Below are positions 122-27,601 of a DNA stretch of 29,979 nucleotides, piece after piece (position 1 is the first letter of the stretch; each line of letters starts with the position of its first letter). A program made the translations under genes and the position numbers. Below the pieces are notes generated by a model. It worked only from the letters and a program-made list of their open reading frames with translations. It was not told the origin of the DNA and searched no databases. This DNA comes from a virus. Taxonomy: Duplodnaviria; Caudoviricetes. The DNA is taken from positions 1 through 29,979 of the IMG/VR virus record IMGVR_UViG_3300020044_002186; one strand, given 5' to 3'.

Positions 122-1466
122 CAAACAATCCATTGCCAAAGCATTATCAAGCGGCACAAACGAGGCATACAATAAACTGATATACACGTGGCTAGGCACG
201 AATATCATAATGAATGAGGACAATGATTCCACATACATTCGTGATGGTTATCAACGCAATGCAACCATTTATTCAATCATTAACCTGATTGTTAAGGCAG
301 CCACAACAATCCCTGTTTCTGTTTACCGTGTCACAAATGAAGGCACAGCAAAGCAATACAAAGCAATGACATCAGGTGTGATGGATGGCCCTGCAATTTA
401 CAAGGCCAACATATTACGCAAAAGAGCATTTGAAGAAATAAAAGATTCGGATTTAGAGGCATTATTGATGCGACCAAACCCGGCACAATCATTTTCAGCG
501 TGGTTAGGTGAAATCGTTGCATTCGGTAAATTAACCGGAAACCGTTACATTTACGGCATCGGGCCTGATTCAGGGCCAAATCAGGGTAAATTTACGGAGT
601 TGTACAATTTACCATCACAATTGGTTGAAATCGTTTCAGGCGGTGTAATGCAACCTGTGGCAGGATACAAAATCCAATATAATTCAATGATTGAGGTTGC
701 GCCAGAATATATTTGCCACATCAAAGATTTTAATCCGGATTACGACAGCAGCGGTTCAAACCTATATGGCCAATCACCTTTGCGTGCCGGCCTACGTGTT
801 TTATCGGCCAACAATGAAGCCGTGACCACCGGATTAAAATATTTACAGAATCAAACATCACGTGGTATGTTGATTTCAAAGGATGGAAATTTGACTGAGG
901 TGCAAGCACAGGCATTAAAAGACAAATTCAGAAAAAATTATCAGGGGGCAACAAACGCAGGTGATGTGATTATCACACCAAAGGATTTGAGTTGGGTTAA
1001 TTTTGGTTTGTCAGCATCTGATTTGTCATTAATTGAGCAATACAATGGAACGGTTAAGGATTTGTGTAATTTATACAACATCCCTGTGCAGTTGCTAAAC
1101 AACACAGATGCATCCACATACAATAATATGAAGGAGGCTAAAAAGGCATTATACCAAAATGCGGTGATTCCTGAATTGATCAAAATTCGTGATGAATTAA
1201 ACAGATGGTTAGCACCTAAATTTGGCAAAGAATATTTCATTGACTTTGATTTCACGGTAATAAGTGAAATGCAAGAGGAAGTGGATAAATTGGTGTCACA
1301 ATTAGCAGCAGCGTGGTGGGTTACACCAAACGAGAAACGTGATGCAATGAATTACGCTACGGATAAAGAAAATGCATTTATGGATGACTATTTTATCCCG
1401 GCTAATTTAATGGCACAGAATCCAACAATGCCGGCATTGGAAAATCCAAAGCCATTAAACGTTTAG
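99..1466 (+). CDS. Phage portal protein (HK97 family)
   Basis: 455 aa; motifs LLMRPNP, GNRY, HIKDFNP..YGQSPL, YNIPVQLL, TPNEKR; follows TerL on the circle. Confidence 0.93.
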   Translation: MASIIDTFKQSIAKALSSGTNEAYNKLIYTWLGTNIIMNEDNDSTYIRDGYQRNATIYSIINLIVKAATTIPVSVYRVTNEGTAKQYKAMTSGVMDGPAIYKANILRKRAFEEIKDSDLEALLMRPNPAQSFSAWLGEIVAFGKLTGNRYIYGIGPDSGPNQGKFTELYNLPSQLVEIVSGGVMQPVAGYKIQYNSMIEVAPEYICHIKDFNPDYDSSGSNLYGQSPLRAGLRVLSANNEAVTTGLKYLQNQTSRGMLISKDGNLTEVQAQALKDKFRKNYQGATNAGDVIITPKDLSWVNFGLSASDLSLIEQYNGTVKDLCNLYNIPVQLLNNTDASTYNNMKEAKKALYQNAVIPELIKIRDELNRWLAPKFGKEYFIDFDFTVISEMQEEVDKLVSQLAAAWWVTPNEKRDAMNYATDKENAFMDDYFIPANLMAQNPTMPALENPKPLNV

Positions 1467-1469
1467 TTT

Positions 1470-2522
1470 ATGCCATTGCCAAATCCACAGGAAGGTGAAA
1501 GCCGGAATGATTTTATGGGCCGTTGTGTCATTGATCCTAATATTATCAATGATTTTGATACCATTGAACAGCGTGTTGCAGTTTGTAGCACGTTATTTGA
1601 TCCACAGAAAGAAACAAAGGCGCAGAAAGATTGGGAGAATGATTTTGAAAACCAATTGACCAAAGCAGAACGCACATCAGTTCGTGATTTCACGGAGTTT
1701 TACAAGGCCGAATACAATGATGCCATTGACCTTTATTTAAAGGTTAAGCAGATGACACCGGCAACAGCACAGGGCTTTTTTCAGGACAGCAAATATGTTG
1801 GAATGTATGAGCAAATGTATTCCAAAATCGGTTTGCAATTTGCAAATTGGTATTCCAGAAACGTTCAAAAATATATGCCAAAAGCCGATCCGGCTAATAT
1901 GCAATCAATTTGGGCCAACGCATTTGCATTTATGGGAAATCAAGTTGCAGGGCAACGTGTCACGTTAGTATCGGCAACAGCACAGGCAACATTGACAAAT
2001 ACAATTCGCCAATTTATGACCGATCCTGTTTTTCAATCAGCCGGTGAAGTGGTGCAATCAAAAATGTTGCGACAAAAATTTGATGGGTTGGCTGATTATC
2101 AAGCACGTAGGATTGTTCGAACGGAGGCAACAAATGCCGCCAATTATGCAACGGAACAAGCAGCAGTCAATTTGTTTGCCGGTCAGGATTTAACGAAAAC
2201 GTGGCGATCTGGATTTGATGCACGTGTTCGTGATGCACACAGGGCAGCCAATGGACAGGTTGTGCCATTTAATAGTAAATTTTCGGTTGGTGGTGAATCA
2301 TTACAAAGACCGGGCGATCCTAATGGTTCAGCAAGCAACGTAATCAATTGCCGTTGTTCAATGATTGTATTGCCGATAGAGGGAGCAAATACAATTGGCA
2401 CACCAATTACTGATTTAGGATTTGGAATTGCACAGGCAACCATAATTGATGCAATAAATAGTGCTGAAATAATAACAGGTGCAACAGGTGCAATTGTGGC
2501 TGAGGAAAATTTGGGCGGATAA
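1470..2522 (+). CDS. Head morphogenesis / minor capsid protein (SPP1 gp7 / Mu gpF-like)
   Basis: ARRIVRTE, KTW...DARVRDAH, PGDP...NVINCRC motifs; sits between portal and protease. Confidence 0.88.
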   Translation: MPLPNPQEGESRNDFMGRCVIDPNIINDFDTIEQRVAVCSTLFDPQKETKAQKDWENDFENQLTKAERTSVRDFTEFYKAEYNDAIDLYLKVKQMTPATAQGFFQDSKYVGMYEQMYSKIGLQFANWYSRNVQKYMPKADPANMQSIWANAFAFMGNQVAGQRVTLVSATAQATLTNTIRQFMTDPVFQSAGEVVQSKMLRQKFDGLADYQARRIVRTEATNAANYATEQAAVNLFAGQDLTKTWRSGFDARVRDAHRAANGQVVPFNSKFSVGGESLQRPGDPNGSASNVINCRCSMIVLPIEGANTIGTPITDLGFGIAQATIIDAINSAEIITGATGAIVAEENLGG

Positions 2523-2545
2523 AATTAATTTTTGTATTCCATTTT

Positions 2546-2571
2546 CTAATTAGCAATTTGACTAATTTTGA
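2546..2571 (+). promoter_or_regulatory. Promoter (-7 box TAATTTTG at 2563-2570) with overlapping inverted repeat
   Basis: CTAATTAG-N8-CTAATTTTGA; the same motif occurs at 18948-18973. Confidence 0.65.
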
Positions 2572-2585
2572 GCAAAAGAAAGGTT

Positions 2586-3269
2586 ATGATTTACAAACAA
2601 ACATCCATTGGGATTGATGACATAGATGAGGCAAACGGTATTGTTTCTGGATATGGTTCAATTTTCGGCAATATTGATTCAGACAATGACATCATTTTGC
2701 AAGGTGCATACACCAAAACATTATCTGAAAACGGATCACGTGTAAGATATTGCAACCAACACAGAATTGATCAGCCATTAGGTAAATTCACAGAATTACG
2801 TGAGGATGGCACAGGATTGTATTTTGTTGCGGAAGTTCCAAAAACAAGAATGGGTGAGGATATTTTGTTGTTGATGAAAAATGGTGTGATCACGGAAAAT
2901 TCCGTTGGTATTATGCCAATTGTAAAGAATTACAGACAGGATGGTGTGCGTGAATTGAAAGAGGTGAAGTTGTACGAAATTTCGTGCGTTACATTAGCCG
3001 CAAACCCAATGGCATTGATTACCGATGCAAAAGGTGAAATTGATCAAAATTTATTGGCAAAACGTTTCGATGTTTTAGCCAAAATGATAAAGAAAGAAAA
3101 CGTATCCGATGAATTAGGGTATGCAATCGAAGGTGAGTTGATGAAATTGAAATCATTGTTTATTGATGTAACCACACGGCCGGCAGAAATTGTCACCGTG
3201 CCGGAAGTTAAACAGGTGGAGATTTCCGAAATATTTTCATATTTAAACAAACAAATTAAGTCAAAATAA
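2586..3269 (+). CDS. HK97-family prohead protease
   Basis: GYGSIFGNID, NQH...PLG, SVG, LYEISCVTLAANP; ATG 2586 preferred over TTG 2568, which lies in the promoter box. Confidence 0.92.
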   Translation: MIYKQTSIGIDDIDEANGIVSGYGSIFGNIDSDNDIILQGAYTKTLSENGSRVRYCNQHRIDQPLGKFTELREDGTGLYFVAEVPKTRMGEDILLLMKNGVITENSVGIMPIVKNYRQDGVRELKEVKLYEISCVTLAANPMALITDAKGEIDQNLLAKRFDVLAKMIKKENVSDELGYAIEGELMKLKSLFIDVTTRPAEIVTVPEVKQVEISEIFSYLNKQIKSK

Positions 3270-3270
3270 G

Positions 3271-4467
3271 ATGACAGAAGAAATCAAAAATCAATTAGAT
3301 GAATTAAATTCAGCTATTGATAGCCGTATCGCAAAAGCGGAAGGCCAAGCAGTTGCATCAGCAACAGGAAAAGCGGATGAATTATTAAAATCCGAAATCA
3401 AGAATTTAGAAACTAAATTCACAGAAATCCACAGCCGTATTGATGCAGCAGAGGTTGCAGCAAAAAAAACAGCATCAGGAGCAAACGCGCAATCATTCAA
3501 ACAATCTTTGATTGATGGTATCACAAAGGGTGGTTTAGATGGTTTAGTAAATGGCAATAGCCGTTCAGCTAAATTTGAAATCAAAGCAGGTGATATGACC
3601 GTTGCAAACAATTTCACAGGTGAGGTTATCCCTGCGCAATATGTTCCGGGTATCAAATACGATCCAACGCGTCCTGTACACGTTCGTCAATTATTGCCAC
3701 AAGGTTCAACAACATCTGAGGTTGTTCGTTACGTACGTGAAACAGCATACGACAATGGTGCAGCAACACGTGCGCAAGGTTCAACATTGGGAGAATCAGA
3801 TTTTGATCTTTCAGCAATCGATGCAAACGTTCAGAAAATCGGTACTTATTTCCGTATTTCTGAGGAAATGTTAGCAGATACACCACAGCTAACATCTTAT
3901 TTAGCAGCACGTGCGCCGGGTAAATTGTTATCAGTTGAAGATACACAATTGCTTTATGGTAACGGTACTGCACCAAACATCAGCGGTATTTCTACATCAG
4001 GTGCAACAGCATTCGCAGCAGGTGCATTTGCGGACACGATTACAGCGGCAAACCAATTTGACGTTTTAACCGTAGCAATCAACCAATTGGCATTGTCTAA
4101 TTACCGTCCTGATTACATTATGTTGAACCCAACAGATTTTTCTAAAATCTTGTTATTAAAGGCAACAACAAATGAATACTTGCAAGAGCAAGCCTATATG
4201 GGATTACAGCCACAATTCTTAGGAGTTCCGGTTGTATTAAACACAGCAATCACAGCAGGAACATACCTTGTTGGAAACTTTGCATTAGGAACACAAATGT
4301 GGGTGCGTGAGAATCTTTCATTGGAATTTTTCCGTGAGGATGGAACAAACGTACGTGATGGTTTCGTGACCGTTCGTTTGGTTGAAAGAATTGCATTAAC
4401 TAACTACGCACCATTAGCAATTGTTAAGGGTGTATTTGCAACGGACATCGCTGCAATCGGAGTTTAG
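3271..4467 (+). CDS. Major capsid protein (HK97 fold)
   Basis: 398 aa; N-terminal coiled-coil delta domain, ISEEMLAD, LLYGNG, LGVPVV. Confidence 0.93.
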   Translation: MTEEIKNQLDELNSAIDSRIAKAEGQAVASATGKADELLKSEIKNLETKFTEIHSRIDAAEVAAKKTASGANAQSFKQSLIDGITKGGLDGLVNGNSRSAKFEIKAGDMTVANNFTGEVIPAQYVPGIKYDPTRPVHVRQLLPQGSTTSEVVRYVRETAYDNGAATRAQGSTLGESDFDLSAIDANVQKIGTYFRISEEMLADTPQLTSYLAARAPGKLLSVEDTQLLYGNGTAPNISGISTSGATAFAAGAFADTITAANQFDVLTVAINQLALSNYRPDYIMLNPTDFSKILLLKATTNEYLQEQAYMGLQPQFLGVPVVLNTAITAGTYLVGNFALGTQMWVRENLSLEFFREDGTNVRDGFVTVRLVERIALTNYAPLAIVKGVFATDIAAIGV

Positions 4468-4487
4468 TTTTAACGCTAATCTAAATT

Positions 4488-4526
4488 AAAAGAAAGCCAC
4501 CTAAAATTTGGGTGGCTTTTCTTTTT
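4488..4526 (+). terminator. Rho-independent terminator after capsid gene
   Basis: AAAGCCACCTA/TGGGTGGCTTT stem followed by a T-run. Confidence 0.85.
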
Positions 4527-4533
4527 ATATTTG
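4526..4533 (+). promoter_or_regulatory. -7 promoter box for the neck/lysis genes
   Basis: TATATTTG directly after the terminator, 19 nt before ATG 4553. Confidence 0.6.
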
Positions 4534-4552
4534 TTCAAAAAATAGCACAATT

Positions 4553-16882: not shown

Positions 16883-18820
16883 ATGGCATACGGTGTAAAA
16901 TATCGTTTGGAATTTGCCGACATAAAAGGCAACAAACGAAAGGTTGAGATTTTCAAAAATGGGTACACCGGTGAGGTTTTACCAATGATTGGAACAGGTG
17001 AGCCGGTTGAAATAGAGTGGAAGGCTGAGGAGGATTTATATGAGCCATTAATTGGATCATTATGCACGTTGAATTTATTAGTAACGGATGACGTTACCTA
17101 TGATGATTTTTATCTATATGATGAACGTGAATACAAAGTGGTGGTGTATTTCGAGGCATCAGCCGGATCGTGGCAAACATATTGGTCAGGATGGGTTGTA
17201 AACGATTTATATTCACAGGCATTGGTTTCCACACCATATTCATTGTCAATCACAGCCACAGACAATTTGGGGCAATTAGATGCATTTGATACATGGATGC
17301 CGGCTGTTGGGGAATCTGATCCAACATTGTGGAAATTTATGTGGAATGCATTGTCAAATTTGCAATTGGATTATGACATTTACATCAGCAATGATTTACG
17401 AATTGCAACCGATACGGCATGGAAAAACATATTTGATCAGGTAACGATAAAAAAAGCGGCATATTATCATGATAATTATATCATAAATGATTCAAAAATG
17501 ACATTGCGTTCAATATTACTTGGATTCAATTGCCGTATATTTCAATCATTTGGCCGGTGGTATATTATAAATAATTCATCGTATGGTGATCAACGAATCA
17601 TTGCAGGAATACAAGCCGGCACATACACAGGATCGGGCATTTTAACTGCAAAGCAAGGTTTTTTAAATGGTGGAACTGAGGAAATCAAATATTGGATTTA
17701 TAATGCATCAGGTGTGGAACAATCAACGGTGACAACCAATATGTTGAAAGTAATTCCAACAAATATGTTGCCAATAGGCCAAAATTTATTTCGTACACCA
17801 CGCAGGCCGGTTAAAAAATATCAGGAAATTGTAGATATTACACAAAAGCCAATTGATTTGAATTTTAACGGATCATTTGAATTTGGCACAGAGGATTGGT
17901 CAGCTAATGTTGGATCAATTGGATCACCTGAAACAAATCCATTTGCAGGGCGAAGGGCTGGATTCTTTATTGAAAAAACAAACAATTTTGCAACGTTTAC
18001 AGCAAAAATGTTTAGCACAACAACAAATGCGTTGGTTACAATTGCAAATCAATATCAATTATTATTATCAGTATTAGTTGAAAATAATGGCACATCAAAT
18101 AAATTGCCATATTACATTAAAATTGATGATTTAAATGGCACTAATTGGTATTTTAATGGTTCATCAAATGCATCACAGGCATGGGGTACAAATTTAGTCT
18201 GGAATACGGTTACAATTAATTCAACATACAAATATCAATCATTTAAAATTACAACAGCCGCAGCCCCTGTTTCGGGCCGTATTTCAGTTCATTTAGGTAT
18301 TTTACAAACAAATGATAATATAGGTCATATTGGTACAAATGTTGATAACGTTGTAATTCGAAATATTGATACAGAACAAAACGTTTACAAACAGGCATGG
18401 TTTATTCGTGAACAATCGGGAGTGTTCAAAACTTCGGATGTGTTGGAACATTCGGATATATATCAGGCAAATATCCCATCAGGCATTTTTTGGGGTAATT
18501 TTACGGACGGCAATACGTTCAAACGTGCGCAGGATGCAAACGGTACATTATTAGAACAATTGATTACACAGCAAAGATTGAATGATTTTAGGAATTATTC
18601 GATGCAATACGAGGGTGATTTGTACAATCAGGATCAATATTCAATAATGTCAATGGCGCATAAATTGTGGGTTAAATTTAATACATTAACCGAAACAGAT
18701 TCGGCAATTGTGGATTCAATCAGGGTGCAGTTAAAATCAAACATATACACCTGTCAATTCCATATCCCAAATAATTACACGGATGTGGCAAGTTCATACC
18801 GGGTTTCATATCAAGAATAA
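16883..18820 (+). CDS. Tail tip / baseplate hub protein
   Basis: 645 aa directly after the tape measure gene; beta-rich; last structural gene. Confidence 0.65.
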   Translation: MAYGVKYRLEFADIKGNKRKVEIFKNGYTGEVLPMIGTGEPVEIEWKAEEDLYEPLIGSLCTLNLLVTDDVTYDDFYLYDEREYKVVVYFEASAGSWQTYWSGWVVNDLYSQALVSTPYSLSITATDNLGQLDAFDTWMPAVGESDPTLWKFMWNALSNLQLDYDIYISNDLRIATDTAWKNIFDQVTIKKAAYYHDNYIINDSKMTLRSILLGFNCRIFQSFGRWYIINNSSYGDQRIIAGIQAGTYTGSGILTAKQGFLNGGTEEIKYWIYNASGVEQSTVTTNMLKVIPTNMLPIGQNLFRTPRRPVKKYQEIVDITQKPIDLNFNGSFEFGTEDWSANVGSIGSPETNPFAGRRAGFFIEKTNNFATFTAKMFSTTTNALVTIANQYQLLLSVLVENNGTSNKLPYYIKIDDLNGTNWYFNGSSNASQAWGTNLVWNTVTINSTYKYQSFKITTAAAPVSGRISVHLGILQTNDNIGHIGTNVDNVVIRNIDTEQNVYKQAWFIREQSGVFKTSDVLEHSDIYQANIPSGIFWGNFTDGNTFKRAQDANGTLLEQLITQQRLNDFRNYSMQYEGDLYNQDQYSIMSMAHKLWVKFNTLTETDSAIVDSIRVQLKSNIYTCQFHIPNNYTDVASSYRVSYQE

Positions 18821-18825
18821 TTTTG
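18818..18825 (+). promoter_or_regulatory. -7 promoter box for candidate sRNA1
   Basis: TAATTTTG overlapping the TAA stop of the tail gene. Confidence 0.55.
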
Positions 18826-18829
18826 TTTT

Positions 18830-18928
18830 TCATAGGTTTAGGGTTGCGCATCCGTTCATCTTATGGGTGAATCGGATGTTGATTAGGTTGAATGCAGAAT
18901 GGTCGTGGAATTATCTACGGCCATTTTT
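18830..18928 (+). ncRNA. Candidate small RNA 1 (~100 nt)
   Basis: Promoter box, internal hairpin 18849-18878, terminator hairpin 18898-18925 with T-run; G-U pairs favour the + strand; unpaired parts are complementary to phage translation starts. Confidence 0.5.
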
Positions 18929-18934
18929 GTTTTA
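18898..18934 (+). terminator. Rho-independent terminator
   Basis: AATGGTCGTGGA/TCTACGGCCATT stem (2 G-U pairs) followed by T-runs. Confidence 0.8.
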
Positions 18935-18947
18935 TTTGCCGGTTTTA

Positions 18948-18973
18948 CTAATTAGTTAATTGGCTAATTTTGA
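18948..18973 (+). promoter_or_regulatory. Promoter (-7 box TAATTTTG at 18965-18972) with overlapping inverted repeat
   Basis: CTAATTAG-N8-CTAATTTTGA, as at 2546-2571. Confidence 0.65.
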
Positions 18974-18986
18974 AAAAAAACTACAA

Positions 18987-19970
18987 ATGGGTTTAAAACA
19001 CGATCAAATCAAGGATCATTTTTTTTCATCGCCATTGTCAATGAAACATTTTTCGGAAAAATACCACGAAACGTATGGGTATTCAGATGCAAAGCAAATG
19101 CGAAAAATGATGAGCCGTTACAATATTTTATCACGTGTAAGAGCTGAAAAGACATTGGCTGATTTACCAAAGGCACAAATCGAATCCACAACATTTTTCG
19201 AATTAGAAAATTTTGGAATTGAGGAATCAATTGGTAAGGAATACACATCAGCACGATTACCGGATCATTTAAAGAAAATTGGCATATTATCCGACATTCA
19301 CGTGCCGTTTCATTCGGTCGAAGCCGTTGTGTGTGCAATTAAGCATTTAAAGGAACAAAACATTGATTGTTTGTATCTGAATGGAGACACTTTCGACCAA
19401 TATTCAATTTCCAGACACGAACGTGATCCCGATCTTAGAGACTATCCAAAGGAAGTCGAAATGTGCCGTAATTTCCTGCAAACATTGCGTGGTATATTCC
19501 CAACGATACCGATTTATTTTAAGGCAGGGAATCACGAAAACAGGCATCAAAGATATATTAACCAACAGGCAGAAGAATTTGCGCAGTTGCACGAATTGCA
19601 ATTTGAGCAATTTTTTAGATTAGATGTGTTAGACATTAAATATGTTCCTGATTGGCAGGGAATGGAAATGGGCGATTTGTTGGTTTGTCACGGTCACGAA
19701 TTGATGGCCGGTGGAATGAATCCATCGCAAAGCACGTTCAATAAAACGTTCTGCAATACGTTAATTGGACACGTTCACAGGACAACCAACACCATTAAAA
19801 AGACAGGATTTAAACAATACATTCACACGTATTCCACAGGATGTTTGACACAATTAAGCCCAAAATACTATCCATTTGCCCAGCACAATCACGGGTTTGC
19901 ATTAGTAATGATAACCGATGGGAAGGCAAAGGTTGAAAATCTAATGATAAAAGATGGAAAAATTGTGTAG
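18987..19970 (+). CDS. Calcineurin-like metallophosphoesterase with N-terminal extension
   Basis: SDIH, NGD, GNHE, HGH and GHVH motifs; ATG 18987 preferred over TTG 18960. Confidence 0.9.
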   Translation: MGLKHDQIKDHFFSSPLSMKHFSEKYHETYGYSDAKQMRKMMSRYNILSRVRAEKTLADLPKAQIESTTFFELENFGIEESIGKEYTSARLPDHLKKIGILSDIHVPFHSVEAVVCAIKHLKEQNIDCLYLNGDTFDQYSISRHERDPDLRDYPKEVEMCRNFLQTLRGIFPTIPIYFKAGNHENRHQRYINQQAEEFAQLHELQFEQFFRLDVLDIKYVPDWQGMEMGDLLVCHGHELMAGGMNPSQSTFNKTFCNTLIGHVHRTTNTIKKTGFKQYIHTYSTGCLTQLSPKYYPFAQHNHGFALVMITDGKAKVENLMIKDGKIV

Positions 19971-19975
19971 TTTTG
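19968..19975 (+). promoter_or_regulatory. -7 promoter box for candidate sRNA2
   Basis: TAGTTTTG(CA) overlapping the TAG stop. Confidence 0.55.
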
Positions 19976-19979
19976 CATC

Positions 19980-20050
19980 GGTAGTAAAGGTTTAATGATT
20001 CATACAGTTGTTGTTTAGAAAGGGCAGATCCAATGGGTTTGCCCTTTTTT
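19980..20050 (+). ncRNA. Candidate small RNA 2 (~70 nt)
   Basis: Promoter box, unstructured G/U-rich segment complementary to three early-gene starts, then a terminator. Confidence 0.52.
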
Positions 20051-20053
20051 ATT
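20019..20053 (+). terminator. Rho-independent terminator
   Basis: AGGGCAGATCC/GGGTTTGCCCT stem followed by a T-run. Confidence 0.85.
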
Positions 20054-20111
20054 GCACAGAAACGCAATATTTTGACCGTTAAATAATTATTTGATATTTT
20101 TTTGATTATTT

Positions 20112-20153
20112 TTGTTTGAAATTGTTTGAAATCAAAATAAAAGTGTAATTTTA
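20112..20153 (+). promoter_or_regulatory. Probable early promoter
   Basis: TTTG at 20125-20128 inside tandem TTGTTTGAAA x2, and variant -7 box TAATTTTA at 20146-20153. Confidence 0.5.
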
Positions 20154-20184
20154 CATCAACAAACAACAACAAAACAATAACAAT

Positions 20185-20517
20185 ATGAAAAATTCAACAA
20201 TTGACGCACAATTTTCAATGTTCAATGAGGCACAAATTGAGGCCATCAAATTAATTATTAACAAAAATTTTTGGGGTGATTGTGATCAAGAATATGCAGA
20301 TGGTAAAACATATGATACATATGGATATTATACAAACACACAAAAAGGCAAAGAGTGGTCAGGTATGATTTCAGGCATATCAAAAAAAATCAAATCATCA
20401 AAAACAAATTTAATCAATACGTTTCCTAATTGGTGGGGTGATAATAGCGGTGATATGATCTTTTTCAATATTGATTTAATTGACAAAGATGAATTAGAAA
20501 AATGGGCATCAAAATAA
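20185..20517 (+). CDS. Hypothetical protein (first early gene)
   Basis: 110-aa ORF with A/C-rich leader. Confidence 0.75.
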   Translation: MKNSTIDAQFSMFNEAQIEAIKLIINKNFWGDCDQEYADGKTYDTYGYYTNTQKGKEWSGMISGISKKIKSSKTNLINTFPNWWGDNSGDMIFFNIDLIDKDELEKWASK

Positions 20518-20527
20518 ATTAACACCG

Positions 20528-20553
20528 TGCCGGGCGGATTCCCGGCAATTTTT
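20528..20553 (+). terminator. Terminator-like hairpin
   Basis: TGCCGGG/CCCGGCA stem followed by ATTTTT. Confidence 0.6.
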
Positions 20554-20566
20554 AAACAACAACAAT

Positions 20567-20677
20567 ATGTGGAATCTATTAAAAACAATTGACAAAAATG
20601 ACATTGCAGGTTTAGTTATCGTTTTAACAGCCGGTGCAATCTGTGTGAAACTTATGTACATCGTTGGCAACATTTAA
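20567..20677 (+). CDS. Small membrane peptide (36 aa), not in ORF track
   Basis: MWNLLKTIDKNDIAGLVIVLTAGAICVKLMYIVGNI; leader TAAACAACAACAAT-ATG; fills the gap between genes. Confidence 0.65.
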   Translation: MWNLLKTIDKNDIAGLVIVLTAGAICVKLMYIVGNI

Positions 20678-20688
20678 TCACTACGGCA

Positions 20689-20877
20689 ATGATCTACAAA
20701 ATCACATTTAAAGACAATTCCGGTTATTACACCGTGACAAAAGATTTTGCCAACACAGATGAGTTGGGCAAATACATCCAGAATGAAATGGCCAATTATG
20801 GCGGAAAAGAAATAGGCATTGAGGAATTTGAATCAATGCAGGAAATGTTAGAAAAACGATATGAGGGTAAAAATTAA
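20689..20877 (+). CDS. Hypothetical protein
   Basis: 62 aa, overlaps the next gene. Confidence 0.65.
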   Translation: MIYKITFKDNSGYYTVTKDFANTDELGKYIQNEMANYGGKEIGIEEFESMQEMLEKRYEGKN

Positions 20878-21067
20878 TCACGGTGAATTGCACCAAAAGG
20901 TGGCAGACGATTTGAACAAACGAGGGATTCTGCCACCACGCAAAGACAAATGGGAATCGCACAATGTGCAGATGGCCATTTCAAGAAAATTAAATTATCC
21001 CCTAATGTGGGAGGCAATCAATAGAATATCTAAACAAATGTATGATGAATCAGGAAAAACAAATTAA
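20861..21067 (+). CDS. Small putative DNA-binding protein resembling the serine-recombinase 'Recombinase' domain
   Basis: VADDLNKRGILPPRKDKWESHNV resembles IA..LN..G...R...W....V. Confidence 0.5.
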   Translation: MRVKINHGELHQKVADDLNKRGILPPRKDKWESHNVQMAISRKLNYPLMWEAINRISKQMYDESGKTN

Positions 21068-21656
21068 TCCATTGGCCGATATACAGGCAAAATTAAAAGC
21101 ACCCAAAGGGCAATTCAATTCATTTGGGAAATACCATTACAGATCAGCCGAAGATATTTTGGAAGCAGTCAAAAAAGTTGTGAATCCAATGGGGTTTTCA
21201 ATAATATTGACAGATCAGGTAAAAGAAATAGGCGGTCGCATTTACGTAGAATCAACAGCATCATTGTTTAATGGTGAATTAGAATACAACGCAACAGGAT
21301 TTGCACGTGAAGAAGAAACCAAAAAGGGAATGGATGGATCGCAGATCACCGGGAGTGCATCAAGTTATTCACGCAAAATTGCGTTAAACGGATTATTTGC
21401 CATCGATGATACAAAGGATTCGGATTCAACAAATGATCACGGCAAATCGCAGGAATTGAAGCCACAGGCCAAAGGTGCAATACCTGCGCCATCGCAATTT
21501 GATATTGAGTTCAAAGAATTAATTGCAGATGTTAAAAGTGTGATTGCAATTGGTGAATTAAAAGGCATCTGGGAAAAATTAACAGATGAGGCAAAAACCA
21601 ATAAAGAAATTCAGCAATTATTTAACCACAGAAAATCAGAATTATCCACCAAATAA
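21045..21656 (+). CDS. ERF-family single-strand annealing protein
   Basis: LKAPKGQFNSFGKYHYRSAEDILEAVK, AREEETKKGMDGSQITGSASSYSRK.ALNGLFAIDDTKDSD. Confidence 0.9.
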   Translation: MNQEKQINPLADIQAKLKAPKGQFNSFGKYHYRSAEDILEAVKKVVNPMGFSIILTDQVKEIGGRIYVESTASLFNGELEYNATGFAREEETKKGMDGSQITGSASSYSRKIALNGLFAIDDTKDSDSTNDHGKSQELKPQAKGAIPAPSQFDIEFKELIADVKSVIAIGELKGIWEKLTDEAKTNKEIQQLFNHRKSELSTK

Positions 21657-21667
21657 ATAAACAACCT

Positions 21668-22132
21668 ATGAAAAACGAATTGATGGCCGTTGATGGTCAA
21701 ATCCTCGAATTAAACAAAAAAGAAATCACGCAGTTGGCCGAAAACTTTATGGCCAACGCAGATTCAATCAACACCGTGAAATTGGCGGCACAATTGGCAA
21801 AATTCACGCATTTATCAGCCGAAATGGATAAGTTGTTAAAAGAACATTTATTTGTTGATTTGCGCCAAAATAAGGATGGCAAATTATCAGCATTTGGTGT
21901 GGACTTTTCAGAAATGGAGGGCGGTGTAAAATATGATTATTCAGAAACCGAATCATGGTGCAAATTGCAATTTGAAATTGATCGCCTAAAAGACAAACAA
22001 AAAGAAATTGAAGCATTTTGTAAGGCATTGAAATCAAAGGTTTCTATATTGGATGAGGAAACAGGTGAATTGGCTGATTTTTATCCACCATCGAAATCAT
22101 CCACAACCACAATCAAAAAAGTAATTAAATAA
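21668..22132 (+). CDS. Hypothetical protein (recombination module)
   Basis: 154 aa between ERF and the SSB-like gene. Confidence 0.75.
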   Translation: MKNELMAVDGQILELNKKEITQLAENFMANADSINTVKLAAQLAKFTHLSAEMDKLLKEHLFVDLRQNKDGKLSAFGVDFSEMEGGVKYDYSETESWCKLQFEIDRLKDKQKEIEAFCKALKSKVSILDEETGELADFYPPSKSSTTTIKKVIK

Positions 22133-22153
22133 ACAATCTAAATAAAAAATCAA

Positions 22154-22462
22154 ATGGCACGTTTAGTAAACATTAAAATTGACCTTTCAAAAATTGACAA
22201 ATCACGCATCTTTGAAAGCCAAAAGACAGGGGCGAAATATCTGGACATTACAGGTGTATTAACAGACACACCAGATCAATACGAAAACAATGGATTCGTA
22301 AAGCAGAACACAACAAAGGAGGAACGTGAGGCAGGATTGAAATTGCCAATTATCGGAAATTTTAAATTATTGAAAATCTTAAATGATCCGGGCGCACCTG
22401 TATCGGCACAGCCTATTCAACGTGAAGTCAATCCAATTGAAACAGATGAATTACCATTTTAG
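22154..22462 (+). CDS. Putative single-stranded DNA-binding protein
   Basis: Acidic C-terminal tip TDELPF; located near ERF. Confidence 0.62.
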   Translation: MARLVNIKIDLSKIDKSRIFESQKTGAKYLDITGVLTDTPDQYENNGFVKQNTTKEEREAGLKLPIIGNFKLLKILNDPGAPVSAQPIQREVNPIETDELPF

Positions 22463-22464
22463 CA

Positions 22465-22734
22465 ATGAGGAAAATTGTAGATAGTTACACAACACGGCAC
22501 GGTGAATTGAGGGCAATTTATTCCGTTGCAACGGCCAATTTAAAGCACAGGGATATTGAAATCGGTGCGGTATATGAATTGGAATACCGGTTGGGGAAAC
22601 AGGTTTTATTTTTGAAATCTGAATTGGATCACGTAACTGATGGAAATCGCACATTGTTTTTTAAACATCCCGATCCAGAACGCAGATTGATTGGAATCCC
22701 TATTATGTCAATCATTAGATACGTGAAAAAATGA
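22465..22734 (+). CDS. Hypothetical protein
   Basis: 89 aa, tightly packed. Confidence 0.7.
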   Translation: MRKIVDSYTTRHGELRAIYSVATANLKHRDIEIGAVYELEYRLGKQVLFLKSELDHVTDGNRTLFFKHPDPERRLIGIPIMSIIRYVKK

Positions 22735-22841
22735 GCATAGAAACAAAAATTGATTTAGTATTTTATTGGGCCATTGCACAGATGTTTTTTACGATATTAG
22801 GTGCATTAATCAATATTTATAATGAAAACAAAAACAAATAA
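22731..22841 (+). CDS. Small membrane peptide (36 aa), not in ORF track
   Basis: MSIETKIDLVFYWAIAQMFFTILGALINIYNENKNK; ATGA overlap with the upstream stop. Confidence 0.6.
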   Translation: MSIETKIDLVFYWAIAQMFFTILGALINIYNENKNK

Positions 22842-22995
22842 AACAAACGAATTGGGGTACACGTTCAATCAGGTTTGGGCGCATATCGCAAAAGAATTAG
22901 AAAATAATTTAGAAAAATTAAATAAAATTCAACCTAAACAACAAAAATATGGTAACGTTTCAGCAATATCATCAGGCCAATCCGCATCTTTATGA
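22822..22995 (+). CDS. Small hypothetical protein (57 aa), not in ORF track
   Basis: MKTKTNKTNELGYTFNQVWAHIAKELENNLEKLNKI...; fills the gap and overlaps both neighbours. Confidence 0.5.
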   Translation: MKTKTNKTNELGYTFNQVWAHIAKELENNLEKLNKIQPKQQKYGNVSAISSGQSASL

Positions 22996-23224
22996 GTTGT
23001 ACAAGGCCATTGCAATGCAGTTAATTCAGCAAAATCGCAAGGTAATTGGATCAGGATACATATTCCAAAAAATGCGTTTTGAATTTCAGTTTACCACCAA
23101 TGGTGATCCATTCAAAATCAACAACAATTTTGCGCCAATGTATGCACGTAAATTTGTTTTAGAGCATCCGCAATTTGGACACCTGTTCAAATTTAAGCAG
23201 TTAAAAGGTAGTTTATTAATGTGA
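22949..23224 (+). CDS. Phage hypothetical protein
   Basis: 91 aa; FQQYHQANPHLY...FKINNNFAPMYARKF pattern. Confidence 0.75.
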   Translation: MVTFQQYHQANPHLYELYKAIAMQLIQQNRKVIGSGYIFQKMRFEFQFTTNGDPFKINNNFAPMYARKFVLEHPQFGHLFKFKQLKGSLLM

Positions 23225-23230
23225 AACATT

Positions 23231-23238
23231 TATATTTG
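23231..23238 (+). promoter_or_regulatory. -7 promoter box for the replication operon
   Basis: TATATTTG ahead of the structured leader. Confidence 0.62.
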
Positions 23239-23243
23239 TTTCA

Positions 23244-23339
23244 TAATCAGCGGAAAGGGTAGGAGTTTTCCGGTGATTAATTGGGTTTAAGAACCACAAA
23301 GCCTGTCTGCACTCCTACGCATTCAGGCTTTATTTTTTT
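23244..23339 (+). ncRNA. Structured 5' leader with two hairpins whose loops are complementary (kissing loop / attenuator)
   Basis: Loop GTAGGAGT (23259-23266) is the exact reverse complement of loop ACTCCTAC (23311-23318); hairpin 2 is followed by a T-run. Confidence 0.68.
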
Positions 23340-23348
23340 AAAAATCTA

Positions 23349-24032
23349 ATGGACAAAGAGGCATTTTATTTTCCGCATTTCTGTAATGCAAGGCACGACC
23401 GTAAAATCCGCAGGTTGCGCAGGGAATTGGGAGTTGAAGGATATGGCATTTATTTTATGTTGTTGGAAACATTAAGAGAGCAACAAGATTTGATGTACCC
23501 AATGGATGATCTGGATTTGTTATCAGATGAATTTGGTGTATCAGAGGCAAAGATTAGGACAACGATTTGCAATTATGAATTATTTGAAGTTGATGTGGAT
23601 CAAAAATTCTTTTCACCTAAAATGTTGGTTTATTTAGAGCCATATTTTAAAATGAAAGAGCAACGCAAAATGGCCGGAAAAGCATCAGCAGAAAAACGAA
23701 TTTCAACGACCGTTCAACGACCGTTCAACAAAGGAAAGGAAAGTAAAGTAAATGAAATAAAAGAAAATGAAAATAAAGTAAATGAAATAGTGTTTAGTGA
23801 CCTATTGTCACCACACATTTTTGATCTGGGAAATGAATATGACAATTTTCTTTCTTATTGGACAGAAAAAGATAAAAAAGGCAAAGAAAGATGGCAATCA
23901 GAAAAATTCTTTGATATTAGCAGGAGGATAAATACTTGGATGGCTAACAAAAATAAATTCAACAACAATGGATCATCAGACACAAAACTTGGAACGAGTG
24001 CAGCAAGAATGGCAGCCCTTGCAAAATTTTAA
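23349..24032 (+). CDS. Replication initiator (DUF4373 / Lin1244-like N-terminus)
   Basis: YFPH..NAR.D.KI..LRRELGVEGYGIYFMLLE.L; internal iterons; C-terminal F..YW domain. Confidence 0.8.
   Translation: MDKEAFYFPHFCNARHDRKIRRLRRELGVEGYGIYFMLLETLREQQDLMYPMDDLDLLSDEFGVSEAKIRTTICNYELFEVDVDQKFFSPKMLVYLEPYFKMKEQRKMAGKASAEKRISTTVQRPFNKGKESKVNEIKENENKVNEIVFSDLLSPHIFDLGNEYDNFLSYWTEKDKKGKERWQSEKFFDISRRINTWMANKNKFNNNGSSDTKLGTSAARMAALAKF
23702..23790. repeat. Probable origin: 11-bp iterons plus 5-bp-periodic A-rich tract
   Basis: TTCAACGACCG x2 plus TTCAAC, then AAAGG AAAGG AAAGT AAAGT AAATG AAATA... Confidence 0.65.
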
Positions 24033-24714
24033 TGGCATAGCCAATACAATCATTAAGGCACAAAGCAAACCAAACATTCGCAATCGTTCTGAGGATGAAT
24101 TAAAACAGGTTTTACGTTTGGCAATGTTAATGGTTGGATTACGTGGATCAAATATGCCAACGGATGAAGAAAAATACGTATTGCTTGCATTCATCAAATC
24201 TAATTACGGAAACCAAACACCAGAGGAAATTGCCATCGCATTTGAATATGCAGTTGCAGGCAAATTAAATACTGATTGTAAATGTTATGAGAATTTTTCG
24301 TGTGAATACTTTGGCCGGATAATGAACGCATACATTGATTATGCAAGGCAGGAAACCAAATTGGTAAAACGGCCAGAAATAGAAGAAAAAAAGCCTGTGC
24401 CATCTGATGCAGAATTGAAAGAGTTGGCAATTTATAATGTCAATGCATATGTTGCTAAAATCAAATTATTAGATGCAACAGGTGGCAAATTTGATTGGCC
24501 AAAAGGATTGGCACATTTGTATGATTATTTAGTAAAATTTGGAATTTGGGTTTGCCCTGATGCGGATCGTGAACAAATCAAAACACGATTGAGTCTAAAA
24601 TTTACTGATTACAAATTATTCAATGCAGAATGCAAAGGTGAGGCATACAAATTGTTTTGCCATCAATTAGCCGAAATGGATATGACATTGGATCAAAACG
24701 GTCAGATAATATGA
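23968..24714 (+). CDS. Replication-associated protein (possible helicase loader)
   Basis: 248 aa overlapping the initiator gene; function inferred from position only. Confidence 0.5.
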   Translation: MDHQTQNLERVQQEWQPLQNFNGIANTIIKAQSKPNIRNRSEDELKQVLRLAMLMVGLRGSNMPTDEEKYVLLAFIKSNYGNQTPEEIAIAFEYAVAGKLNTDCKCYENFSCEYFGRIMNAYIDYARQETKLVKRPEIEEKKPVPSDAELKELAIYNVNAYVAKIKLLDATGGKFDWPKGLAHLYDYLVKFGIWVCPDADREQIKTRLSLKFTDYKLFNAECKGEAYKLFCHQLAEMDMTLDQNGQII

Positions 24715-27214: not shown

Positions 27215-27601
27215 ATGAAAACTACAAAAGACAAAATACGTTTATTAACATTCTTTGCATTGTGCCAAAATATGTTGGATTTCATTGATGGATCGTGGCA
27301 CGGTCATCCGGCAAACAAACAGGCAGTTAAGATGGTGACAAAGCAAATGATCAGGGAGTTGGAAAAAACAATGGCCATTTTATTCCCGGCAAACAGAAAC
27401 GATGATCCAGAATTGCCCGATGCATTGGATACATTCCAAAATGCCTGCACAGCAATGGAGTCATTTTTTATGCTTGGAATGGAAATGGATGTGATGGATC
27501 AAACAAAGAAAGATTCATTGAATACACAGATTAATATTTTGCTAAAATCATACGGAATTGATTGTTGGGAAAAGCCAATGTCAAACCTATGGAAAAATTA
27601 A
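27215..27601 (+). CDS. Hypothetical protein
   Basis: 128 aa, leader AACCT-ATG. Confidence 0.72.
   Translation: MKTTKDKIRLLTFFALCQNMLDFIDGSWHGHPANKQAVKMVTKQMIRELEKTMAILFPANRNDDPELPDALDTFQNACTAMESFFMLGMEMDVMDQTKKDSLNTQINILLKSYGIDCWEKPMSNLWKN

Follow-up and report, generated by a model that had tools for sequence, protein, structure and literature searches.

The Bacteroidota are a phylum without Shine-Dalgarno pairing, and Bacteroidetes leaders carry translation-enhancing adenines in the -3 to -15 region. The closest described systems are small RNAs of Bacteroides thetaiotaomicron, the FopS family (RF04319) and GibS, which repress by pairing around start codons (PMC11697453, PMC7366714), and a FopS-like sequence has been noted in one phage (PMC11697453). 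The element analysed here lies in the window, a stretch of 29,979 nucleotides that is a full circularly permuted phage genome of 29,858 bp plus a 121-nt terminal repeat (completeness class direct terminal repeats, 100%). As far as the consulted sections of the two reports go, it shares with both RNAs a 5′ single-stranded seed followed by an intrinsic terminator and long AU-rich pairing over the start-codon region (PMC11697453, PMC7366714). To the canonical TAnnTTTG-type promoter of FopS corresponds here a box that is present and conserved, as a predicted promoter, and to the translational repression by GibS and FopS a predicted one. FopS occurs in 12–15 paralogous copies per genome, whereas the 29.9 kb hold one copy plus one unit with a different seed; the seeds of FopS paralogues hardly vary, whereas here seeds and targets diversify together, with at least 13 types. 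In the same sections, FopS is described as binding RbpB and repressing susC mRNA, while the predicted targets here are the phage's own genes. The RF04319 model gave no match at 19968-20053 and only 9-10 bits (cut-off 56) at the other unit, at 18823-18934. By analogy, the unit likely works like FopS and GibS but outside that family.

The C4 antisense RNA of phages P1 and P7 serves one antirepressor operon of a temperate phage as a processed, highly structured RNA, and its specificity differs between related phages (P1/P7 heteroimmunity). It is phage-encoded and pairs to control the phage's own genes (PMC8201110), as is predicted for the present element. Here, in contrast, the AUGs of several scattered genes would be covered, in a phage without integrase or known repressor, and an Rfam C4-type model found no match with E up to 1 in the window or up to 10 in ten related loci. 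T4 RegA is likewise a single phage factor, which blocks AU-rich sequence around the AUG in many of the phage's mRNAs; it is a protein, however, whereas the predicted repressor here is an RNA reading a sequence tag (PMC3014915). Lambda PreS and OOP and VpdS of a Vibrio phage are phage-encoded base-pairing RNAs as well, of which PreS is Hfq-associated and acts mainly on host mRNAs and OOP is cis-antisense to one mRNA; few phage regulatory RNAs have been described, according to the consulted part of that report (bioRxiv 10.1101/2024.10.31.621285). In the literature searched, the coverage of which is incomplete and stops short of the supplements of PMC11697453 (FopS phage copy, Supplementary Fig. 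5a), such an element was not described for any Bacteroidota phage, nor was a regulatory RNA acting on the own genes of such a phage. The Rfam search returned one chance match in the window (MicC, E 0.17, elsewhere) and six sub-threshold matches in ten related loci.

Anatomy and conservation of the candidate unit

All recognised genes of the window lie on the + strand. Genes for packaging, head, lysis and tail extend up to 18820, and behind the metallophosphoesterase (MPE) gene follows a block with the Erf recombinase (21045), a Lin1244-like replication protein (23349), VRR-NUC, methyltransferases and the terminase. From this gene content and a promoter-like site (TTTG, 17 nt, TAATTTTA) we infer that 20185-24714 is the early block. 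A tandem TTGTTTGAAA-type repeat at 20107-20131, directly 5′ of the early promoter, is kept in CAA-type phages and occurs three times in L193.

The candidate unit lies between the MPE gene and this block (Table 1). An earlier note made from the letters alone had read it as a TAnnTTTG box, about 40 unstructured nucleotides with a CAT, and a terminator. Box and CAT (20001-20003) are correctly placed, and the first three bases of the box TAGTTTTG are the TAG stop codon of MPE. The terminator also proved sound, its stem (20019-20047) with the U-run folding at about -20.6 kcal/mol (z -3.0), and is missing from the list of a simple terminator scan of the window. The segment before it is unstructured in the centroid, as claimed, but forms a weak 8-bp helix in the minimum-energy fold. 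A sigma-70 promoter scan, which is unsuited to Bacteroidota, found 83 sites in the window against 81.5 expected.

Table 1. Coordinates of the candidate unit, its surroundings and its predicted target sites in the window
Feature	Position	Strand	Remarks
Metallophosphoesterase (MPE) gene	18987..19970	+	PHROG 221 E 5.6e-40; Pfam PF00149; last gene ahead of unit
Box TAGTTTTG, Bacteroidota-type -7 TAnnTTTG, predicted sRNA promoter	19968..19975	+	Conserved in relatives
5′ seed module GATTCATA	19997..20004	+	Mirrors AUG and first codons; tracks Erf start
3′ seed module (GTTGTTG...)	20007..20018	+	Mirrors CAA-repeat leader tag common to targets
Intrinsic terminator	20019..20053	+	U-run on + strand; stem 20019-20047
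Predicted early promoter: TTTG, 17-nt spacer, TAATTTTA	20125..20153	+	From sequence; relatives have an equivalent box ahead of first gene
Predicted target site 1: leader and start of first early gene (20185-20517)	20171..20199	+	-17.9 kcal/mol
Predicted target site 2: start of 36-aa hydrophobic peptide gene (20567-20677)	20549..20581	+	-21.7 kcal/mol
Predicted target site 3: start of Erf ssDNA-annealing protein gene (21042/21045-21656)	21028..21058	+	-20.7 kcal/mol; PF04404
Predicted target site 4: start of gene 22949-23224 (PHROG 13625)	22933..22960	+	-17.1 kcal/mol
Predicted target site 5: start of gene 23968-24714, adjoining Lin1244-like replication gene	23959..23982	+	-20.3 kcal/mol

MPE matched 129 phage records, none with >60% identity or >80% of MPE length. 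The first set comprised 82 distinct MPE loci (one of the lists behind it holds 80 of 118 found). After exclusion of L037, the contig of which ends inside the gene, and of L159 and L170, which end ahead of the terminator, 79 loci and the window gave 80 scorable loci. A box-like site, a seed and a terminator were present in all 80, as 51 distinct elements. The box was exact in 59 of the 80 loci (36 of the 51 distinct elements) and in 35 of 49 loci of a second set, compared with 8 of 857 distinct stop contexts of other genes; it deviated from the consensus in 21 of the 80, 14 of these reading TAATATTG. Box positions 3-4 are variable, while position 6 is T in 51/51 and position 8 is G in 49/51 distinct elements. 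TCAT is present in 48 of the 51 and missing from three. All 51 have 6-8 T in the 8 bases from the start of the U-run, and among 29 chosen sequences 10 of 14 terminator pairs showed compensation by changes on both sides. The predicted RNA is 57-110 nt long, mostly 66-81. The seed is never closer to the box than a start site allows (5 nt in T176), and the spacer between its modules ranges from nothing to a small GNRA-type hairpin (L177, L187).

An HNH/NUMOD4 gene separates MPE from the unit in seven loci, and in 7/7 the unit lies behind it (unit offsets for L157 and L187 were placed by hand). The box is exact in five of these and TAAATTAG in two. The inserted genes have common C-terminal homology and thus do not represent seven independent events. 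HNH/NUMOD4 genes directly 3′ of MPE (L021:9350-9942, also L157, L165, L177, L178, L187, L193, L234 and L277) use the MPE stop-codon box and have a structured leader of about 100 nt with long inverted repeats. An optional insert of about 50 nt, an inverted repeat around AATAGG...CCTATT that is possibly a protein-binding site, lies between terminator and early promoter in L002, L003, L004, L007, L012, L028, L030 and L149, and in other types too (L184, L243, L255). Past the MPE stop of L258, short tandem repeats stand instead of the unit, and the contig stops 90 nt on. The unit was also found on a 2.8-kb contig in a Sediminibacterium (Chitinophagaceae) MAG, maybe a mis-binned phage piece. No RNA data set was listed among seven sequencing runs; four of the seven consist of related-phage contigs, probably DNA, and have no bearing on transcription either way.

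Searches of the window proteins (overlapping sets of 45, 17 and 6) gave no antirepressor, repressor, integrase or invertase family, nor did an HTH_3 search. The earlier description of a phage with no recognisable repressor thus fits this genome; it does not extend to the relatives, the gene calls of which include 19 small HTH_3/Cro-type genes, every one in a unit-bearing phage. Examples of these genes, which the window lacks, are L004:15774-15977 and L176:16015-16227, with a tandem pair in L176.

Predicted pairing with early-gene starts

The earlier note had drawn gap-free pairings with three early genes. All three were borne out, with 4 bp, 2 mismatches and 11 bp at 20567; 4 bp, 3 mismatches and 11 bp at 22949; and 6 bp, 2 mismatches and 10 bp including one G-U at 20185. 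The register common to them holds for this gap-free drawing, but the best duplex at 20567 is shifted by one base, which places GATTC opposite codons 2-4 and leaves the AUG incompletely paired. The AUG is completely paired in four of five targets.

Duplex energies, which are predictions for short AU-rich duplexes, were calculated for the segment 19982-20020 against 46 curated starts of the window. The five best starts all belong to the early block (20567, 21045, 23968, 20185 and 22949, in this order; energies in Table 1), and they include two that had been overlooked, Erf and 23968. The sixth-best of the 46 was a tail gene at -15.0. When the RNA's own structure was counted in, the same five led, one of them tied with 26486. 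A comparison with dinucleotide shuffles, as the earlier note had suggested, came out in favour of the element: the observed top-5 energy sum was matched by 1/1000 shuffles and the number of starts at -15 or better by 7/1000. However, 24 of 923 genomic 39-mers also matched the top-5 sum on the window starts, and the window alone is therefore suggestive and would not settle the matter. As classes, early starts were not clearly better than late starts (Mann-Whitney p = 0.07); the proposed silencing would apply to a subset of early starts and not to the whole block. A genome-wide duplex scan with the whole segment gave many coding-region sites of similar energy, and 5 of the top 25 were at starts. 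Thus, raw energy alone cannot pick out targets.

The first-early-gene slot is swappable, with 30 protein clusters over 76 loci. The 36-aa peptide encoded at the strongest target has a hydrophobic stretch (mean Kyte-Doolittle 2.3 over 19 aa) and no Pfam or PHROG match; it is a candidate exclusion or toxic membrane peptide. It is conserved in three seed types, where its gene is the first or second of the early block (55 gene calls). The gene at 20861-21067 is no target of the candidate RNA. Its 68-aa product, found in five element types (59 gene calls), has a PF07508 match below the cut-off (E 0.0024) and is a possible DNA-binding regulator.

Co-variation of the seed with target leaders

Seven seed types were defined from the element sequence alone, and first early genes were called by a script that used the early box and the first open ATG and took no account of the element; some of the relatives' start codons were called wrongly. 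Leaving out L017, L027 and L172, which end too soon, and L183, which has no ATG, we obtained 76 loci with a first gene and 66 distinct pairs. The mean energy of these pairs was -15.9 with the own leader against -12.1 ± 0.4 after permutation (0/10,000), and in 64 of 66 the own pair was better than the mean of foreign-type leaders. A perfect match of at least 8 nt was present in 52/66 pairs with the own leader and in 593/2978 pairs with foreign-type leaders. The exact matched words are type-specific, for example ACAACAAC, CATCTAAAC, ACAATTCTAAAC, TAAACCTTATCAA and TTCTAAACCAC, and related first-gene proteins bear the tag of whichever type they sit in. Weak own pairs were those of L023 (-9.6) and L149 (-10.5), and a signal within the TTCT type was not found (p 0.61).

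Since the types mostly coincide with clades (the MPE tree needs 7 changes for 7 types), the independent events number about a dozen rather than 66, and the test was redone on type means. The true assignment ranked 1/5040 for the first gene and 1/5040 for Erf (41 pairs, one fragment dropped), 1/24 for the peptide gene in loci with another gene in first place (28 pairs), 1/720 for the 23968 group (40 pairs, several wrongly called starts included) and 14/720 for the 22949 group (35 pairs), which is weak in several close relatives. Control genes ranked 566/5040, 60/120 and 518/720, and four neighbouring 40-nt control segments, on either strand, 917-4550 of 5040. The reversed, uncomplemented element reached ranks 123 and 228 of 5040 at much weaker energy; low complexity therefore contributes slightly, and the earlier warning about low-complexity leaders was apt. 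The gain of own over foreign pairing was largest for the peptide and Erf clusters among the 72 gene clusters with at least 4 distinct pairs. An endolysin cluster was seemingly type-specific and failed the permutation test (3523/10,000).

The second set consisted of 49 loci on new contigs; contigs seen before, two partial genes and 64 metagenome loci with identities of <=54% were left out. A terminator was in range in 47/49 (not in L234 and L258, the contigs of which end early), a first gene was callable in 43, and 31 had an unseen leader. These 31 paired at -17.0 with their own element against -13.4 ± 0.6 after permutation (0/10,000), with L248 (-6.8), L264 (-9.0), L254 (-9.2) and L276 (-9.4) as weak own pairs in the set. 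Six new seed types ranked 2/720, and five of them 2/120 without L249, the early box of which was accepted by a relaxed rule. For Erf the values were -17.7 and -14.4 in 26 loci, some of them near-copies of earlier loci. The co-variation with leaders that the earlier note had named as a check is thus present at the first gene, Erf and three further gene groups, with null negative controls and agreement in a set of loci fetched later.

The internal position of Erf, 350-1600 nt away, makes it the most telling target. All 22 GATTCAT elements go with an Erf start of ATGAATC (19) or the G-U-compatible ATGAGTC (3), and the 15 TTTTCAT elements with ATGAAAA (12), ATGGAAA (1) or ATGGCAA (2). In the second set, L252 and L257 combine TATTCAT with ATGAATG. 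L014 and L026, in which the CAT was lost, have an altered Erf leader that the element matches over 10 nt. Pairing of the T176 element with its own Erf start is poor (-10.1). Three ERF subfamilies occupy the Erf slot, so that the Erf genes are positional and not strict orthologues, and a quick Erf tree that mixes the three was left unused for ancestry. Two different subfamilies have the same start in CAA-type phages, and the proteins of one subfamily begin with M-N-Q or M-S-Q in seven CAA-type loci and with M-K-N in the two T176 loci. Recombination preserving the first codons could be an alternative source of this start pattern. The divergent subfamilies alternating in one slot are exemplified by 21042-21656 of the window, L003:12017-12703 and L036:2557-3066; the L003-like ERF differs from the window's protein in its N-terminal domain and matches it in the C-terminal 100 residues and the first codons.

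As in trans-encoded base-pairing sRNAs, the seed is complementary to start regions encoded elsewhere and is conserved with them. It is also predicted to pair at the start of a small hydrophobic peptide gene, as a type I antitoxin does; since it co-varies with Erf and others too, the RNA would not be dedicated to the 36-aa peptide.

Predicted mechanism and alternative readings

The locus carries a box, an exposed seed and a + strand terminator, and its complementarity to dispersed start regions is lineage-specific. On this basis, the unit is probably the gene of an sRNA of about 70 nt with a seed complementary to the starts of five of the phage's own likely early genes, which would block ribosome loading in trans. 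A host sigma factor would transcribe the sRNA from the box, and the RNA is predicted to begin about 5 bases past it and to end at the terminator. Its exposed seed may then pair with leader and start codon of the five likely early genes through two modules with a freely varying spacer, a 5′ module against the AUG and first codons, anchored on Erf, and a 3′ module against the leader tag. Such a duplex should hinder ribosome loading and repress a subset of early genes; repression is expected since both the AUG and the adenines of the -3 to -15 region would lie within the duplex, and it is by covering that region that GibS and FopS repress. The trans-acting sRNA that the earlier note had proposed gains support from the co-variation of seed and leaders and from the box, the conservation of which extends past the stop codon and which remains beside the seed where HNH genes were inserted.

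As infection proceeds, the sRNA may turn down genes of host takeover, recombination and replication. The -33 element has a weak status in Flavobacterium. At the usual -33 spacing, a TTTG is missing from the unit box and likewise from the boxes at 72, 2563, 12071, 13312 and 18965, whereas the early site has one. A role in timing is suggested because the unit box thus resembles those of the virion-gene region, and we take the missing -33 TTTG as no more than a hint; the RNA could equally be made from the outset as a damper. It is possible, though doubtful, that the RNA is the phage's repressor and that the seed-tag types (at least 13) are immunity groups, a resident phage silencing the early programme of incomers of the same type. 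Newly acquired early genes would then come under control simply by landing behind the lineage-specific leader tag, and if this were true, Bacteroidota phages would have a widespread system of immunity and timing that controls several genes by RNA alone. The findings bear on the ordering of gene expression in small Bacteroidota phages that have neither repressors nor sigma factors. The natural seed-target variants are ready-made compensatory pairs, reveal the leader positions that have to be masked for an RNA to act when the phylum lacks Shine-Dalgarno pairing, and could become orthogonal translational switches for Bacteroidota.

An RNA with the same antisense function could also arise as the 3′ tail of the late MPE mRNA or as a fragment cut from it. 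This mRNA would include the seed, since MPE has its own box at 18965 and no terminator intervenes; one FopS member derives from a 3′-UTR (PMC11697453, consulted part), and the TA of the unit box comes from the stop codon. However, TTTG is kept past the stop while box positions 3-4 vary, against the background of 8/857; the box persists behind inserted HNH genes in 5/7; and the seed keeps the distance that a start site demands, down to the 5 nt of T176. We consider this origin unlikely; it is the main rival, and the two RNA sources are compatible, not exclusive. That the pairing activates or stabilises target mRNAs, or only buffers them throughout infection, appears quite unlikely. Lambda PreS both represses and activates (bioRxiv 10.1101/2024.10.31.621285, consulted part), and the AUG is partly unpaired in the best 20567 duplex, but it is fully paired in four of five targets, and the target leaders are short and A/C-rich, with no structure that needs opening seen except a hairpin 5′ of 20567.

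Another way to explain the pairing is in cis: read-through transcripts would fold the seed onto the first early leader and silence it on late messages. Read-through RNA 19981-20200 is predicted to fold so, and the co-variation of the first gene is as strong as any. Yet Erf, 350-1600 nt downstream, and the 23968 group, 3-5 kb downstream, both co-vary, the 5′ module tracks the Erf codons rather than the variable first gene, and the terminator is strong and conserved, which makes a role confined to fold-back very unlikely. The leader tags might instead be protein-binding or recombination sites in the DNA, with the element as their inverted copy (an operator or the arm of an invertible promoter). 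Element and first leader do form an imperfect inverted repeat on either side of the early promoter, the first-gene slot is often swapped (30 clusters, 76 loci) and gene 20861 has its weak PF07508 match (E 0.0024). We hold this highly improbable: all 80 loci show one orientation, integrase and invertase families were absent from the results of the protein-family searches of the window, two modules that match different genes make up the element, and G-U-compatible changes and the GNRA-type hairpin indicate RNA. Scarcely credible is a chance pairing of the G/U-rich terminator tail with A/C-rich leaders, to which low complexity contributes according to the reversed control, or a minigene or gene remnant on the minus strand, which can be read as a leader, an ATG and a 3-codon frame. 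Matching is type-specific in two independent sets with null control segments, and the minus-strand frame varies from 2 to 48 codons without conserved length and leaves no room for a promoter after the terminator. The co-variation tests have already largely refuted this last explanation.

Besides the candidate sRNA gene, a second unit of like design lies at 18818-18930 (+), with an exact box on the stop codon of a tail gene, a 5′ seed starting with TTTTCATAGG, a hairpin and a terminator. Such a unit precedes MPE in 33 of 36 CAA-type loci and in 0 of 41 others, and its seed resembles the single seed of other types. Its best window matches are at 27215, 25383, 14242 and 21668. CAA-type phages seem to divide targets between two RNAs. 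Finally, an exact box and a structured leader (z -5.0) stand at 23231-23348 (+), ahead of the Lin1244-like replication gene. This leader, which could be attenuator-like according to its predicted folds, has a terminator-like hairpin beside the start and complementary stretches that could give alternative folds.
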